This document shows positions 6,292-52,107 of a DNA stretch of 64,000 nt, in pieces (the stretch's first letter is position 1; the number at the start of each line of letters is the position of its first letter). The position numbers and the translations under genes are program-made. The stretch is from a virus (Duplodnaviria > Heunggongvirae > Uroviricota > Caudoviricetes). The DNA is taken from IMG/VR virus record IMGVR_UViG_2925846512_000001. One strand, given 5' to 3'. A model generated the notes under the pieces. That model saw only the letters and a program-made list of their open reading frames with translations, searched no databases and had not been told where the DNA came from.

Positions 6292-7484
6292 TAATCATCA
6301 TCCCCGTACAGTTTGCGGGTAACTTCTTCGTCTTCCTCCTCGTCTTCGTCCAGATCCTGTTCAAGCCATGCTTCGTTTGATATGCCTTCCGCATCGACAT
6401 CACCATAACCACCTGTATCGACGATATCGGCAATTTCTTCTCTACGATGCTCAATCCACAATGCGGCATCAGCGCGGCGGCTGGCGGCCCGTTCTCGCGC
6501 GATTTTATCCAGATCTTCAAGTGATGGAGCGCCAGATGCTGTTTGGTTTTCCTCATCATCGGTATTGGTCTTAGGAGCACGCAGATCGGCTTTGATTTGC
6601 TCCAGCATCAGGGGAGGCACTTTTCCTCCATGCGCCTCGATGAATTCAGCCGCTTCCAGCACTGACCAGTTATTTTCACGCTTTCGTTCGTATGCCAGCT
6701 TAACAATGCCAGCTTGCCCCATAGATAAAGCGTGCTTTTCCGCCTCCCGGCTTTCTTTTCGATAGTTATTCCGGATGCTGTAAATGGTGTTGATCAGGCT
6801 GCTTATCTGCGCGGAACAGCTGTTTAGCATGCTCGCGATACGGTATTCAGGCGGAGTACCTTCATCATCGTCTTTTTGCTGATCGCGCATTTCCTGCACT
6901 AGGCGAATACACGTATCCCTGGCGTTCTCCAGCATAAGGAGATGAGAAAGAGACTTTTCCAGAAGAGTGGTTTCCAGAACATCGGCCCCGGACCGACGCA
7001 ACATAGCGCGCGCGGCCTTCCGCGCTTCAACGTTATCTATCAGGTAATCGCCAGCTTCGAATTCAAAGCGTTCACCATCATCATCCAGGGTGTCGCGTTC
7101 CAGGCGATCACGTAAGGTCCGGTGGGCGCGGGTGATCACGTCATGATCATCTGAACGATCATTTATGCGCTTATTTTGGCGCTTCGCATTCTCGACTGCG
7201 GCACTGACAACGGCATTAACTCTTTGTTTTTCCGCTATTTCAGCCGAAATGTGATCACCTGCATGTTGATCATTAGAGTGATCAATGATCATGCTTTTTA
7301 GTGGCTTCCTGACTGGCTTATTTGGCTTGCGGCTGTCCGTAGTCCTGGTGTCTTCTTTGAAGGCACGGAGATAACGACGTGCGGTATTAGGGTTAAGATT
7401 AAACTCGGCGGCATACTGTGCGATGGTGTAACCACCATCTCGCGCCAGGCGAGCAAAATTCTTCTTGTGATCGTCCCAGGTCAC
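6291..7484 (-). CDS. pacA: PacA, terminase small/pac-recognition subunit
   Basis: 397 aa with an acidic C-terminus. It contains the pac site, as in P1. Confidence 0.85.
7131..7292. other. pac packaging site (162 bp) inside pacA
   Basis: Three TGATCA/CGATCA hexamers at 7133-7160 and four TGATCA hexamers at 7252-7291, all containing GATC. This is the 3+4 arrangement of P1 pac. Confidence 0.75.
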
Positions 7485-7569
7485 TTATGCTTCCTTTCGT
7501 AAAAACTCTTTTTGACGCGAGGGTAACGAAAGTCACATGTCAAAAGGCCCGGAACGGGCAAGCAATCAA

Positions 7570-8022
7570 TCAGATACGTGCGGATGTGGCATTACCGTAA
7601 TGACGGTGCTGACGGGCCACCTTATTGAAAAGTTGACGCGCCATTACCCAAGGCTGGTGCTCCCGGCGTTCCTTTTCGTCCTGCGTCATATAGAGTTCGT
7701 TCTGGAGTTTTTCATCAAACCGGCGCGGAGCGCGGCTACGGCGAAAGAATTCAGGATTCAGAGAGTGGATCTGAAATCTACGTGGGCGTGTACTGTCATC
7801 TATCAAAACAGACGAATACTTAGACACAGCGATAGCCTTTAAGCGCAGATAAACATCGCGCTTATCGACATCCAGATGCGGGTATTCCTTTTCAAGAATT
7901 GCTGCGAGTTCTTTCGCTGATAGAAGAGATTTAGTGCGGATCATGTAATCCGCAATCTCGTACGATGTTATTCGTGAGTGATTTATTTCCATGAAGTGGC
8001 GTCCCTGCCAGTTAAGTAACAT
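7570..8022 (-). CDS. lpa: Lpa, late promoter activator
   Basis: 150-aa ORF immediately upstream of pacA, the P1 lpa position, with an operator upstream. Recognition is by synteny and size. Confidence 0.65.
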   Translation of the reverse strand: MLLNWQGRHFMEINHSRITSYEIADYMIRTKSLLSAKELAAILEKEYPHLDVDKRDVYLRLKAIAVSKYSSVLIDDSTRPRRFQIHSLNPEFFRRSRAPRRFDEKLQNELYMTQDEKERREHQPWVMARQLFNKVARQHRHYGNATSARI

Positions 8023-8092
8023 CCTGTCACCTACTGATTAGCCCATGTCAACTAATCAACGTGGAATATAATACCCTCGATTAAAGAAATAG

Positions 8093-8109
8093 CAATACAT
8101 TAGAGCAAT
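8093..8109 (-). promoter_or_regulatory. C1 operator upstream of lpa (Op88-like)
   Basis: rc reads ATTGCTCTAATGTATTG, 14/17. Confidence 0.55.
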
Positions 8110-8110
8110 T

Positions 8111-9154
8111 TTATCTAACACTCGACGAATGACTTGTGATAACGCCCACTCCAAGCGCGTAATCAAAGAACAATCGTTGATGCATCGCCAACCTACCGTG
8201 CGTCTTCTCCCAATTATCGCGGTCACGCTCAATATCACGCTGGCATGACTGGCACAGAGGAATTGCGTAAATGTCATGCGCGCATAATCGACTATGACGA
8301 ACGATATAAGGCGTAATGTGAGCGCCAGCTCCCGCAGCTCCACACCCACAGCATGGACGGGAAGCAACAAAGTCCATGTACTCAGGTAATTTTAGCGATT
8401 GCAGTTTTGGTATTTTGAAATGCGCCATGCCAGGGTCGGAGTCAACATCCACAGGGCATACTTTTGCACGCATCGGCGCGGCGCGTTCTTCCATCATCTG
8501 AACATATGCTGTAGCGCGATCGTCATACGGGCGAATATCCGCCTCTTTCAGAGGTCCGCTATCCTGCGGAGTAGCCTTCATCTTATTTATTGATATGCGG
8601 CAGACTTCTTCCGGCATCAGGTGCATCATGTTGCGCATGAAAGCCCACCAGCACAGCTCCTGAATACTTAAATCATGGCTATTTGAAAGGCCCATTTCCT
8701 GACGGGCGACATCCAGTATCCAGTTAACGCGATTATTGTGCAGCGTTTCTTTCAGCTCATTAAAACCACGCATCCGGTAATGGTTATCGTGATGCCAGCA
8801 CAACAACACCGCGCTATTGTCTCGTTCAGCGTGGACAATATGGTTGTCACACCAACTACGATCTGCGGCCTGGCATTGACCCTCTTTCCTACGCAACCAC
8901 GCCACCAGCGCGTCAATTCCACCAATACGGCGAAACAGTTCATCGCTGTTAAAAAACGGCTGCAACGCCTCATTTGTTGCCATGGTTTGCTCGGTAACAA
9001 CGAGGCCGTCTTCCATGTGCTCGATTAACTCACGCGGCACCGGCTCCATAATAAATTTACGGCCAGCCTCCACCAGCTTTCTGACCTCCTGATCCACTTT
9101 GAACGTGGCGAGGCCAAGCTCTTTCTGTACAAATGGAGTAATTACGGCTTTCAC
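8111..9154 (-). CDS. hypothetical protein (position of P1 pdcB, post-doc)
   Basis: 347 aa, Cys-rich ([12 protein letters not shown]...C..C). No known domain recognised. Confidence 0.5.
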
Positions 9155-48060: not shown

Positions 48061-48642
48061 ATGGCACCTATTCCTTATGGGGTTTACAGCCAGGCTGACG
48101 GTGTATCGCCATTTCTGAAAGTTACTTTAACGAACTCTCAGTACCAGGTTACCGGATATATCAGCCAGGGGGCGGCAATGAACATGGCCCAGAATTGGGA
48201 AGCGCCGTTTACCGGTATGTCCATGGGATCTGTTGCTGGTGCCTTCAGTGGTTTTGCGCAGGTTGGTACTGAAACAACGTCGGTTGCCCGTTGGAACAGC
48301 TTAATGGTTTGGGAAGGGGGAACACCGCCGACTTTCACGCTGCCAGTAACTTTCATCGCTTTGTTTGACCCATTCACGGAGGTTTCAGGAGCTATCGCCG
48401 CATTGTCAGCGATGATTAGCCCGGAACTTAAAGATGCCAGTATTGGTGGTCGAATCCCGGAGCGCGTGACGCTAAACATTGGTCGCCGGATCAACATCAT
48501 TGATGTCGCTATCCAGGACATAAGTTTCGATCTCGATGCGCCCAGGGACAGCAATGGGCATTTCCTGAAAAACACCGTCAACCTCCAGTTGACCGGTTCT
48601 TCGATATATAACAGCTCCGATATTGTTCGGGCGTTCCAGTAA
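48061..48642 (+). CDS. tail structural protein
   Basis: 193 aa; preceded by a terminator hairpin GGCCGGAGAACTCCGGCC. Confidence 0.45.
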   Translation: MAPIPYGVYSQADGVSPFLKVTLTNSQYQVTGYISQGAAMNMAQNWEAPFTGMSMGSVAGAFSGFAQVGTETTSVARWNSLMVWEGGTPPTFTLPVTFIALFDPFTEVSGAIAALSAMISPELKDASIGGRIPERVTLNIGRRINIIDVAIQDISFDLDAPRDSNGHFLKNTVNLQLTGSSIYNSSDIVRAFQ

Positions 48643-48653
48643 AAGGATTTTAT

Positions 48654-49163
48654 ATGGGGCACAATAACACTAAGGGAAACCGTAAATTTATTAAGGGCCG
48701 CTATACTGCCAACGCGGCCAAAGGCGAACGACTGGTATCTTCTGAATTCCAGCTCACTTTTGCAGGCCATGAAGATATCAGCGTACTGGTTCGCACGTCG
48801 CAAATTCCTGAAATGACCCGCGAGGATGTGGAGGACTATGGTCCGAATGGTGTGAAGTTCAACCAGCACGGACCAATTCGAAACTCTGGGGAAATCCAGG
48901 TCCAGTGCGTGGAGACTATCGAAGGCGATATTCTTCAGTTCATCAAGGATCGCATTGCGGCGAAGGACTATGTTGATATCACGATGGCTGCTACCCCTGA
49001 ATCCAAATCTTCCGGGGTTAACGCTGTGACAAAAGCTGCTACAACAATTGAAATGTTGGACTGCAAAATCTACAGTGATGCAATCGACTTTAGTACCGAA
49101 GATGTGACTGCCGCTGTGCGCCCGTCACTTCGTATCGTCTACAACTGGATTGAGTGGGATTAA
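48654..49163 (+). CDS. tail tube-like / baseplate protein
   Basis: 169 aa; RBS AAGGA. Confidence 0.45.
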   Translation: MGHNNTKGNRKFIKGRYTANAAKGERLVSSEFQLTFAGHEDISVLVRTSQIPEMTREDVEDYGPNGVKFNQHGPIRNSGEIQVQCVETIEGDILQFIKDRIAAKDYVDITMAATPESKSSGVNAVTKAATTIEMLDCKIYSDAIDFSTEDVTAAVRPSLRIVYNWIEWD

Positions 49164-49181
49164 GAGTCATCCCTTGTATTT

Positions 49182-49207
49182 TAAAGCTCCTTCGGGAGCT
49201 TTTTTAT
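49182..49207. terminator. palindromic terminator hairpin
   Basis: AAAGCTCC-TTCG-GGAGCTTTTTTATT. Serves the tail operon and also lies at the 3' end of the hok locus. Confidence 0.6.
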
Positions 49208-49267
49208 TTGGAGATGAAAGGGTGCATTGAGGATACCTGACACACTAAGAGTGGCGGGGATCTCTCC

Positions 49268-50606
49268 CATAAGCGCTAACTTAAGGGTTGTGGTATTACG
49301 CCTGATATGATTTAACGTGCCGATGAATTACTCTCACGATAACTGGTCAGCAATTCTGGCCCATATTGGTAAGCCCGAAGAACTGGATACTTCGGCACGT
49401 AATGCCGGGGCTCTAACCCGCCGCCGCGAAATTCGTGATGCTGCAACTCTGCTACGTCTGGGGCTGGCTTACGGCCCCGGGGGGATGTCATTACGTGAAG
49501 TCACTGCATGGGCTCAGCTCCATGACGTTGCAACATTATCTGACGTGGCTCTCCTGAAGCGGCTGCGGAATGCCGCCGACTGGTTTGGCATACTTGCCGC
49601 ACAAACACTTGCTGTACGCGCCGCAGTTACGGGTTGTACAAGCGGAAAGAGATTGCGTCTTGTCGATGGAACAGCAATCAGTGCGCCCGGGAGCGGCAGC
49701 GCTGAATGGCGACTACATATGGGATATGATCCTCATACCTGTCAGTTCACTGATTTTGAGCTAACCGACAGCAGAGACGCTGAACGGCTGGACCGATTTG
49801 CGCAAACGGCAGACGAGATACGCATTGCTGACCGGGGATTCGGTTCGCGTCCCGAATGTATCCGCTCACTTGCTTTTGGAGAAGCTGATTATATCGTCCG
49901 GGTTCACTGGCGAGGATTGCGCTGGTTAACTGCAGAAGGAATGCGCTTTGACATGATGGGTTTTCTGCGCGGGCTGGATTGCGGTAAGAACGGTGAAACC
50001 ACTGTAATGATAGGCAATTCAGGTAATAAAAAAGCCGGAGCTCCCTTTCCGGCACGTCTCATTGCCGTATCACTTCCTCCCGAAAAAGCATTAATCAGTA
50101 AAACCCGACTGCTCAGCGAGAATCGTCGAAAAGGACGAGTAGTTCAGGCGGAAACGCTGGAAGCAGCGGGCCATGTGCTATTGCTAACATCATTACCGGA
50201 AGATGAATATTCAGCAGAGCAAGTGGCTGATTGTTACCGTCTGCGATGGCAAATTGAACTGGCTTTTAAGCGGCTCAAAAGTTTGCTGCACCTGGATGCT
50301 TTGCGTGCAAAGGAACCTGAACTCGCGAAAGCGTGGATATTTGCTAATCTACTCGCCGCATTTTTAATTGACGACATAATCCAGCCATCGCTGGATTTCC
50401 CCCCCAGAAGTGCCGGATCCGAAAAGAAGAACTAACTCGTTGTGGAGAATAACAAAAATGGTCATCTGGAGCTTACAGGTGGCCATTCGTGGGACAGTAT
50501 CCCTGACAGCCTACAAAACGCAATTGAAGAACGCGAGGCATCGTCTTAACGAGGCACCGAGGCGTCGCATTCTTCAGATGGTTCAACCCTTAAGTTAGCG
50601 CTTATG
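49268..50606 (+). mobile_element. IS186 (IS4 family), complete, with 10-bp target site duplication
   Basis: 23-bp terminal inverted repeats CATAAGCGCTAACTTAAGGGTTG / CAACCCTTAAGTTAGCGCTTATG. Flanked by direct repeat GGATCTCTCC at 49258-49267 and 50607-50616. Target reads GGGG-N6-CCCC. Confidence 0.9.
49317..50435 (+). CDS. IS186 DDE transposase
   Basis: 372 aa (GTG start; MPMNYSHDNWSAILAHIGKPEEL...), IS186/IS421 transposase sequence. Confidence 0.9.
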   Translation: MPMNYSHDNWSAILAHIGKPEELDTSARNAGALTRRREIRDAATLLRLGLAYGPGGMSLREVTAWAQLHDVATLSDVALLKRLRNAADWFGILAAQTLAVRAAVTGCTSGKRLRLVDGTAISAPGSGSAEWRLHMGYDPHTCQFTDFELTDSRDAERLDRFAQTADEIRIADRGFGSRPECIRSLAFGEADYIVRVHWRGLRWLTAEGMRFDMMGFLRGLDCGKNGETTVMIGNSGNKKAGAPFPARLIAVSLPPEKALISKTRLLSENRRKGRVVQAETLEAAGHVLLLTSLPEDEYSAEQVADCYRLRWQIELAFKRLKSLLHLDALRAKEPELAKAWIFANLLAAFLIDDIIQPSLDFPPRSAGSEKKN

Positions 50607-50628
50607 GGATCTCTCCCCACCAGGTCTC

Positions 50629-50784
50629 TTACCTTTCAGATTCGTAGGCTGTGAAGACAGTGACCTCCGTCTGGCCGGTTCGGATTCGTACCTCGCAGAG
50701 GTCTTTCCTCGTTACCAGTGCCGTCACAATGACGGTTAAACAGATGACGATCAGAGCGATTAACATCGCTTTTTGCTGCTTCAT
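50629..50784 (-). CDS. Hok-family type I toxin (RelF/HokD- and HokC-like), 51 aa
   Basis: Found by hand: MKQQKAMLIALIVICLTVIVTALVTRKDLCEVRIRTGQTEVTVFTAYESER. RBS AAGGAGAAG. Confidence 0.85.
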   Translation of the reverse strand: MKQQKAMLIALIVICLTVIVTALVTRKDLCEVRIRTGQTEVTVFTAYESER

Positions 50785-50842
50785 AGCCTGCTTCTCCTTG
50801 ACCTTTTGGTCGGTAAGAGGCTAATCTACGTATGCTAAGCAT
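50636..50842 (-). CDS. Mok-like overlapping reading frame (translational coupler for hok)
   Basis: 68-aa track ORF in the +1 frame, completely overlapping hok as mok does in hok/sok loci. Confidence 0.6.
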   Translation of the reverse strand: MLSIRRLASYRPKGQGEAGYEAAKSDVNRSDRHLFNRHCDGTGNEERPLRGTNPNRPDGGHCLHSLRI

Positions 50843-50965
50843 AGATATGGCCTCAGATTAATGTTAAGCGTCTTGCAGGACGCGTAATGTTATCTGGGGC
50901 TTTCTTCTATCTGCTTTTCGGGTAATGCCTGAAGCAGATAGCCTCAAGCACCCGCAACGATTGTA

Positions 50966-51211
50966 TCAATGTCTGGCTTTTTTTCTATAGAAATCACCTG
51001 GAAGGGTGAATATCCACATCAGAAGAAATGTTGCAGCAAACATGATCCCTAATGGCCAGACCGCGCCAAAGAAAATCCATACTAAGATCTCCTCTGCTTG
51101 TTCTTTGCGGTCGATATCGACAAGCATTTTTCGGCTGAACATGTATACACAGAAGCCAATACAAACATATCCTGCAAAAGCGATCGCTAACTGTAAAAAA
51201 TCAGATTGCAT
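50966..51211 (-). CDS. small membrane protein downstream of repL (rlfA position)
   Basis: 81 aa from the internal Met (MQSDFLQLAIAFAGYVCIGF...) with GAGG RBS. Two TM segments. Confidence 0.45.
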   Translation of the reverse strand: MQSDFLQLAIAFAGYVCIGFCVYMFSRKMLVDIDRKEQAEEILVWIFFGAVWPLGIMFAATFLLMWIFTLPGDFYRKKARH

Positions 51212-51241
51212 CTCCGACCTCAAACTGAAAACGCCAGGTGA

Positions 51242-51258
51242 CTCCAGATTAGAGCAAT
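51242..51258 (-). promoter_or_regulatory. C1 operator-like site within the 3' end of repL
   Basis: rc reads ATTGCTCTAATCTGGAG, 12/17. Confidence 0.3.
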
Positions 51259-51261
51259 CTA

Positions 51262-52107
51262 TCACCCTCTGAATCCTGCCGGTATACCCCATTGTTCGTT
51301 ATCTTTATTTTTGGCTAAAACCGCATTAAGAGCTTCGTTTACCGTCATGCAATGCGGCAGATTATCGAAGTTTGATACCCCGCCAATATCAGGAGAACGC
51401 TTGTTCTTCAGGTAAGCATATTTCCGCGCTGCCGCCTCTACCTTCTGCTTGAACTCATGTTTTTGAGCGCGTTTTTTGGATAACCGCAGATTGTCAGCCT
51501 TTGCTTTTGCCTCAGCGATCCATGAAGTCAATTTTTTGAGTCTGGTCGTTCCGGCACCGCCGGAAACTGATCTTTTTGTTTTTTTAACTTGTGACTTCTT
51601 ATTCTTTATTGCCACGTCATCCTGACAGGGGGAGGGGGTATCATTTTGACATGGGGGTGTGGATAAAAAATTAAATAAAGCCAATGTCTTAGCGAGAACA
51701 GCTTTAACCTTGGTTGCCGCTGAAGAGATCTTTAATTTGCTTTCAATCAGCGCATTTTTGGCTTGTTGTGCGAAGGCCAAAAAGGATGGTGTAAACCGGT
51801 ACAGGTTAGCGCGACGTTCACGGTGATCGCCGATAACAATCTCTACAGACAGAATTCCTTTGTTTACAGCTTCACGGAATGCACGAACGACGGTTGATTG
51901 GCTATAACCAGTTTCTGCCGCGATCAGGCGGTGAGGCTTGTGAATGAAGTATTCACTGGTTGTTGCCGCGAGATTTGCACATTGCGACAGGATATGCCCG
52001 GCGCTACGGGATAGACCGGAGTGTGTTACAAAGCAGGCCAATTCATAGCCAGAAAAAGTAAAATCGCTCATCGTTATACAGCTCAGGAAAGTGACTTTAG
52101 CCAGCAT
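51262..52107 (-). CDS. repL: RepL lytic replication initiator
   Basis: 281 aa containing MSDFTFSGYELACFVTHSGLSRSAGH...; second gene of the operator-controlled operon. Confidence 0.85.
   Translation of the reverse strand: MLAKVTFLSCITMSDFTFSGYELACFVTHSGLSRSAGHILSQCANLAATTSEYFIHKPHRLIAAETGYSQSTVVRAFREAVNKGILSVEIVIGDHRERRANLYRFTPSFLAFAQQAKNALIESKLKISSAATKVKAVLAKTLALFNFLSTPPCQNDTPSPCQDDVAIKNKKSQVKKTKRSVSGGAGTTRLKKLTSWIAEAKAKADNLRLSKKRAQKHEFKQKVEAAARKYAYLKNKRSPDIGGVSNFDNLPHCMTVNEALNAVLAKNKDNEQWGIPAGFRG

Follow-up and report, generated by a model that had tools for sequence, protein, structure and literature searches.

The 64,000-nucleotide stretch of viral DNA analysed here (IMG/VR record IMGVR_UViG_2925846512_000001, Caudoviricetes; the whole stretch is called the window) carries a complete copy of the insertion sequence (IS) IS186 next to a toxin gene of the hok family on a P1-like phage-plasmid. 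Taken as a whole, this arrangement is very probably best explained by an in situ insertion of IS186 into the hairpin that follows the hok stop codon, a site which is a recurrent hot spot for this element, and by a disabling of the toxin locus through that insertion. The positions of all features are collected in Table 1.

The original prediction, made from the letters of the window, had described a complete IS186 with 23-bp inverted repeats, and this description is borne out. The 23-nucleotide sequence CATAAGCGCTAACTTAAGGGTTG is present in two exact copies in the 64-kb window, where none is expected by chance, and the two copies form the perfect ends of an element of 1339 bp. In comparison to IS186A of E. 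coli K-12, 1338 of the 1339 bases are identical (99.93%). The sole mismatch is found at IS position 425 (window 49692) and exchanges Gly to Ser, and there is one amino-acid change between the window transposase and InsL1 of K-12. The transposase is encoded by a single open reading frame (ORF). A GTG-initiated protein of 372 aa had been proposed for it, but the GTG at 49317 only opens the longest ORF; the annotated start in K-12 insL1, as well as in the PGAP annotation of an identical plasmid, is the ATG at 49323, which gives a protein of 370 aa.

The element is bordered on both sides by the direct repeat GGATCTCTCC. A repeat search gives 12 nt for this repeat, as the outermost bases of the IS, C and G, lengthen the match. 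If the IS and one repeat copy are removed and 48600-49267 is joined to 50617-51400, the resulting 1452 bp match the genome of Punavirus P1 MH422554.1 exactly. Because the IS-free join matches this genome exactly, the repeat is a true target-site duplication of 10 bp and the element was inserted in situ. The perfect 10-bp duplication claimed earlier is thereby supported by both exact copies and by an exact empty site. The insertion target GGGGATCTCTCCCC has the form GGGG-ATCTCT-CCCC, and the duplicated part corresponds to GG-N6-CC. From the stop codon of the hok gene, which is located on the opposite strand, it is 12 nt to the duplication, as was stated before, and 22 nt to the end of the IS. 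The region 48600-51400 shows 100% identity to the Salmonella IncY plasmid NZ_CP039862.1, and the flanks of the element are 100% identical to the P1-like phage MH422554.1. By synteny and near-identity the replicon is assigned to the P1-like (Punavirus, IncY) phage-plasmids.

The target of IS186 has been described as GGGG(N6/N7)CCCC, with duplication of GG-N6-CC and use of both orientations (Lee et al. 2016, PMC5009759). The motif is rare in K-12, where 19 N6 and 35 N7 sites are found, and the frequency with which the individual sites are hit varies widely (PMC5009759). Within the 64-kb window the hok hairpin is the only N6 motif, and one N7 motif, GGGGCAAGGTTCCCC, is located at 31405-31419. The latter site is intergenic, adjoins a tRNA-like sequence and is itself terminator-like.

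IS186 is found repeatedly at the hok hairpin. In K-12 it occupies the homologous hairpins of hokC and of hokE, with locus-specific duplications and in opposite orientations. A hokE-like locus of E. albertii NBRC 107761 carries IS186 with the duplication GGTTTTACCC, and in the plasmid NZ_AP027749.1 the element is found in the same P1-type site, with the same duplication as in the window, in inverted orientation. Among the PLSDB records of the P1-type site 216 are empty, 161 contain the IS in the orientation of the window and 34 contain it inverted (47% occupied). In IMG/VR contigs the end of IS186 was detected 102 times; 100 of these ends were usable, and about 55 of them adjoin a hok 3' hairpin. 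Both sets of numbers count records and not independent events, and they are inflated by clonal spread. From the IMG/VR ends 51 were assigned automatically, being next to a hok ORF or to the fold-back-inhibition (fbi) element of the hok mRNA, and 4 more were assigned by eye. The hok-adjoining ends differ in locus haplotype, duplication and orientation, of which at least 14 combinations occur; they belong to hokC, hokE, P1-type, several lambdoid and hokD-type loci.

The event recurs because hokC-, hokE-, hokD- and P1-type hok loci carry the motif in the same hairpin. The equivalent hairpins of hokA (GGG-N8-CCC), hokB (GGGG-N5-CCCC) and hokD (GGGG-N7-CCCT) in K-12 are non-canonical and unoccupied in that genome, and the hairpin of hok from plasmid R1 (GGGC-GCAG-GCCC) is non-canonical as well. 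Sites of the hokD type with one mismatch to the motif are occupied in some prophages.

Some observations were made alongside these scans. The IS of IMGVR_UViG_2923350032_000001 (7151-8489) is flanked by unequal repeats, GGATCTCTCC next to hok and GGATCACTCC towards fbi, and its fbi-side flank has the haplotype of the IMG/VR contig L082; to judge from these flanks, two IS-bearing variants of the P1 type may have recombined inside IS186. P1-like records which were deposited as phages and contain this hok locus are all empty, in comparison to the 47% of plasmid records that are occupied, but they represent only about six distinct phages and the difference may be due to chance. In a scan of genome contigs with one genome per species, exact IS186 ends were also found in assemblies labelled Marinobacter, Kocuria, Streptosporangium, Bradyrhizobium, Aerococcus, a metagenome-assembled genome of Prevotella and others, several of them with the flanks of K-12 hokC, hokE or P1-hok. 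These are almost certainly due to E. coli contamination or chimeric contigs, and as many of its matches are of this kind that scan is of limited use.

The excess of IS186 at hok 3' hairpins could also be a result of selection, acting instead of or besides target preference, if toxin-disabling insertions are kept and others are purged. We regard this as a possibility of some weight, though not as the probable one. The 47% occupancy of the hok site stands in contrast to the other intergenic motif site of the same replicon, the N7 motif at 31405-31419, which served as a control and was occupied in 0 and intact in 434 plasmid records. In addition, motif sites differ widely in hit frequency (Lee et al., PMC5009759), and a possible adaptive value was suggested for insertions of mobile elements that disrupt hok/sok (Durrant et al.). 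However, the spacer of the control site is 7 nt long, and as calculated from the counts in PMC5009759 the hits per site are several-fold fewer for N7 than for N6. Variation from site to site is seen even in mutation-accumulation lines, in which selection is minimal (PMC5009759). Furthermore, the IS is never found in the hok ORF or promoter, though simple selection for inactivation would allow both.

Known hot spots of IS186 follow the same target rule. Those in fimA and menC (PMC5009759) are used in both orientations and were hit repeatedly and independently, as is the case for the window site, and the lon promoter site, which is named in Durrant et al., is likewise a known hot spot under this rule. 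In contrast to the window site, where a structural element of a type I toxin mRNA is hit that many mobile elements share, the fimA, menC and lon sites lie in promoter or coding sequence and give selectable phenotypes. One could go further and propose that IS186, when it spreads on mobile elements, naturally uses the terminal 3' stem-loop of hok mRNAs as its main landing pad, and that this may be more than a coincidence of motifs; we consider this generalization rather doubtful. About half of the IS186 ends on viral contigs and 47% of the P1-type plasmid hok loci fit this pattern, and the other motif site of the replicon is never used.

What the insertion means for the hok mRNA was analysed by folding the reconstructed IS-free transcript (387-427 nt). 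In the reconstructed intact mRNA nt 1-12, the tac element, pair with nt 373-385, the fbi element (49220-49232), with a probability of 0.99 and a duplex energy of -21.9 kcal/mol. The tac/fbi mechanism of hok mRNA is described in PMC9841398. The sequence left of the IS (49219-49233) had been read as an fbi element pairing with the hok leader; the fbi element was recognized correctly, but its partner is not located at 50918-50931, since tac is found at 50942-50953, 22 nt off. That the IS parts the toxin frame from the fbi element was also rightly seen: fbi has been moved by 1349 bp. The tac-fbi fold-back in a contiguous mRNA of ~390 nt is present only in the reconstructed empty-site allele and not in the allele of the window.

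The second affected structure is the hairpin itself. In mRNA sense the target GGGG-AGAGAT-CCCC is the apex of a GC-rich stem-loop, which starts 10 nt past the hok stop codon and has an energy of -22.6 kcal/mol. The IS splits this stem-loop, by which the energy is reduced to -9.7 kcal/mol. A GC-rich stem-loop is found at the same post-stop position in hok of plasmid R1. The lengths of the R1 hok transcripts, which we take to be ~398 and 361 nt, place the post-stop hairpin as the terminal stem-loop of the processed mRNA, and by analogy the hairpin of the window would be its counterpart. Mutations that weaken the last 3' stem-loop of truncated hok mRNA abolish toxicity, probably via exonuclease attack (Le Rhun et al. 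2022, PMC9841398).

A check by RNA folding of whether a fold-back can still be formed without the displaced fbi element had been proposed. In the IS-bearing allele the 5' end of the mRNA folds locally in most of the read-through lengths folded, and segments of the IS pair with it no better than shuffled sequences do. A surrogate fbi element derived from the IS was therefore rejected as a candidate: the best duplexes (-19.5 and -17.9 kcal/mol) correspond to the shuffled expectation (mean best -19.5 kcal/mol), compared to -21.9 kcal/mol for the true fbi element.

The following course of events would account for the locus. A P1-like (IncY) phage-plasmid received a copy of IS186 by transposition in situ, and the transposase probably chose the hairpin apex past the hok stop as the only N6 site of the window for this rare GGGG(N6/N7)CCCC motif. 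The insertion split the post-stop hairpin and carried the fbi element away, while the sequences of hok, the mok-like frame and Sok as well as the hok promoter are untouched. Transcripts of hok would now run into the IS and end inside, as for K-12 gef/hokC; for the gef mRNA of K-12 a length of ~644 nt with the end in IS186 has been reported, and both fbi and processing are believed to be disrupted there by the element (PMC3562002). Such IS-ended transcripts would be deprived of the stable inert 5'-3' fold-back as well as of the protective 3' stem-loop. Because fbi and the terminal stem-loop are lost, no stable inert mRNA pool for post-segregational killing would be expected. The locus would stop storing the long-lived toxin mRNA that such killing needs, and would be a silenced or at least disabled addiction module. 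We infer this functional loss at the window locus by analogy; a citing paper, which refers to Pedersen and Gerdes 1999, regards the K-12 hok loci with IS elements as non-functional.

It is conceivable, though in our opinion unlikely, that the toxin gene was not inactivated by the insertion and has only changed its regulation: its mRNA would be longer and terminate within the IS, Sok would still act as repressor, and convergent read-through from the transposase gene might add to the repression. The K-12 gef/hokC gene, which carries the same insertion, is reported to be still transcribed (~644 nt) and still regulated by antisense RNA (PMC3562002); in the window no damage is seen to the hok, Sok and promoter sequences or to the mok-like frame, and a terminator-like site is located within the IS on the hok strand. 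On the other hand, fbi and the terminal stem-loop, which are known needs of a stable inert mRNA pool, are missing, no IS-derived fbi surrogate exceeds the random expectation, and the IS-bearing hok loci of K-12 count as non-functional in the citing paper mentioned above.

The persisting transcription and antisense regulation of K-12 gef also weigh against a locus disabled at a recurrent hot spot, and judged by this example the term 'silenced' may be too strong for an IS-bearing hok. The same holds for several other points. For one arbitrary 3' end, and only for this one, distal pairing with IS sequence is obtained: a read-through RNA of 644 nt gives a weak, wobble-rich pairing of the 5' end with a probability of 0.57, which is no better than for shuffled sequences. 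The equation of the window hairpin with the terminal stem-loop of processed R1 mRNA is based on its position, on the R1 transcript lengths given above and on the comparison with the R1 hairpin. Finally, the clonal inflation of the PLSDB and IMG/VR counts has to be kept in mind.

The original prediction had stated that the window reproduces the IS186-hokC arrangement of K-12, and the spacing, the orientation and the GGGG-N6-CCCC hairpin are indeed equal. In K-12 IS186A-hokC (gef), as in the window, IS186 is inserted into a GGGG-N6-CCCC hairpin 10 nt past the stop codon, with a 10-bp duplication and 12 nt between stop codon and duplication; the transposase gene points towards hok, and the IS stands between hok and its fbi element. 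The insertion point is the same at both loci, but the duplication is not: the hokC target is GGGG-ATCACT-CCCC with the duplication GGATCACTCC, so that an A is found in hokC where the window duplication GGATCTCTCC has a T. Besides, K-12 hokC is chromosomal in contrast to the phage-plasmid locus of the window, and the toxins are 82% and the hok mRNA regions 83% identical; the window Hok protein is more similar to HokD (96%) than to HokC (82%). The insertion in K-12 hokC and that in the window are independent events.

That recombination brought the IS186-hok block into a P1-like plasmid out of a host chromosome, with a K-12-like dnaJ-IS186A-hokC-nhaA interval as one conceivable source, is highly improbable, and such a capture is rejected because of the exact empty site and the divergence of the flanks: insertion point, orientation and 12-nt spacing are those of K-12 hokC and the IS is 99.93% identical to IS186A, but both flanks run exactly into P1-type sequence with a known exact empty site, identity to hokC is no more than 83% in the hok mRNA region compared to 99.93% for the IS copies, the toxin is of the hokD type, both duplication copies carry the local T and not the A of hokC, and dnaJ and nhaA sequences are not present. 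Between the two possibilities named at the outset, capture or a recurrent hot spot, the repeated hits in both orientations speak for the hot spot and the exact empty site speaks against capture. One ancient insertion shared by hokC, hokE and P1-hok was rejected too, as each locus has its own duplication in both copies, the element is found in either orientation, and identity is 99.9% between the IS copies but 83% between the loci. The likeness to K-12 hokC reflects the repeated independent targeting of one RNA-structure element and not the capture of a gene.

It had further been stated that hokC, hokA and hokE of K-12 are all disrupted by IS elements downstream of the toxin ORF. This is correct for hokC and hokE. 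IS186B-hokE resembles the window in its homologous hairpin (GGGG-AGTAAT-CCCC) and its 10-bp duplication, but the element has the opposite orientation to hok, the spacer is 9 and not 10 nt long, and the Hok protein is very divergent. At hokA, however, the element is an IS150 that lies upstream, within mokA. In this locus (3720448-3722111) IS150 cuts off a sokA remnant, a mode of disruption unlike the IS186 cases. The errors on the tac position, the transposase start and hokA leave the conclusion unchanged. The hok/sok (parB) system of R1 has a Hok/Gef toxin, an overlapping mok frame (a putative one in the window), a leader with the Sok target, a tac-fbi fold-back and a GC-rich post-stop stem-loop (~10 nt) in common with the window. 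In contrast to the window its hairpin has no IS186 motif, whereas in the window allele the hairpin is split and fbi is displaced.

Table 1. Features of the IS186-hok region. Positions refer to the whole window, strands to the strand shown; a dot marks features without strand.
Feature	Position	Strand	Evidence and remarks
Terminator-like hairpin ending the upstream phage gene bplB	49183..49202	+	Terminator scan; bplB annotated in homologous records; intact, outside the insertion
fbi element of hok mRNA	49220..49232	-	Pairs with nt 1-12 of reconstructed intact mRNA; now separated from the mRNA body by 1349 bp
Target-site duplication, left copy, 10 bp, GGATCTCTCC	49258..49267	.	With GG 49256-49257 the fbi-side half of the split 3' hairpin
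IS186 (IS4 family), 1339 bp	49268..50606	+	Perfect 23-bp inverted repeats at 49268-49290 (+) and 50584-50606 (-)
IS186 transposase, InsL-type, DDE, 370 aa	49323..50435	+	Convergent with hok; PF01609, E = 5.9e-27
Terminator-like hairpin and T-run inside the IS, hok-sense strand	50034..50053	-	Consensus scan; candidate stop for hok read-through transcripts
Target-site duplication, right copy, 10 bp, GGATCTCTCC	50607..50616	.	With CC 50617-50618 the hok-side half of the split 3' hairpin
hok toxin gene, hokD type, 51 aa	50629..50784	-	PF01848, E = 2.4e-22; 96% identical to K-12 HokD
mok-like overlapping frame, 68 aa	50636..50842	-	ORF list; position as mokC in K-12
hok mRNA 5' leader / Sok target	50779..50953	-	Rfam RF01794, 114.9 bits vs gathering score 59, full length
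Sok-like antisense RNA region (putative)	50834..50910	+	Local alignment to annotated K-12 sokC; by homology
tac element	50942..50953	-	mRNA fold and 5' end of RF01794
Promoter-like site for hok mRNA (TAGAAA, 16-nt spacer, TG, TACAAT)	50960..50987	-	Consensus scan; its end lies 6 nt before the 5' end given by Rfam

For the mok-like frame of 68 aa no Pfam match was obtained. Compared to K-12 hokC/sokC the leader/Sok region contains an insertion of 18 nt, GCGTCTTGCAGGACGCGT (50863-50880), which forms a small hairpin and appears as an insertion in the Rfam alignment too. Matches to the Rfam families CRISPR-DR46, ceN48 and sbrA in the region were under the gathering scores and were taken as chance.

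The locus is located between bplB upstream and repL, kilA, ant and icd downstream. In the reference genomes of P1 and P7 the interval between bplB and repL (region of window 49164-51261) contains rlfA, rlfB and pmgF (or rapA and rapB), while hok/sok and a small ORF are found here. From this comparison of gene content, the interval appears as a variable cassette position in P1-like genomes. The small ORF between hok and repL comprises up to 108 aa (50966-51292, minus strand), is annotated by PGAP as a hypothetical protein of 81 aa and has a hydrophobic stretch, but no Pfam match.

All main parts of this picture are already published, namely IS186 beside K-12 hokC and hokE, the motif that IS186 targets and insertion hot spots linked to hok. 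Durrant et al. found, for E. coli as well as for K. pneumoniae, that homologs of hok/sok lie near insertion hot spots of mobile elements. In the literature searched there was no explicit statement that the hot spot is the post-stop hairpin owing to its match with the IS186 motif, and no report of a high IS186 occupancy at hok in P1-like phage-plasmids. The link between motif and hairpin and the occupancy in P1-like replicons are modest extensions of a known phenomenon and include no new mechanism.

As a rule, hok loci with a post-stop hairpin of the form GGGG-N6-CCCC are at risk of being split by IS186, and in annotation IS186-split hok genes should count as probably disabled addiction modules. 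If the terminal stem-loop is indeed the main landing pad, either IS186 would gain a harmless harbour on mobile elements, in which it is carried between hosts on phage-plasmids and prophages, or the hosts or the elements themselves would gain from IS186 turning off hok addiction modules. The occupancy of the P1-type site suggests that nearly half of the P1-like phage-plasmids with this hok locus hold an interrupted copy, which bears on the maintenance of these plasmids.

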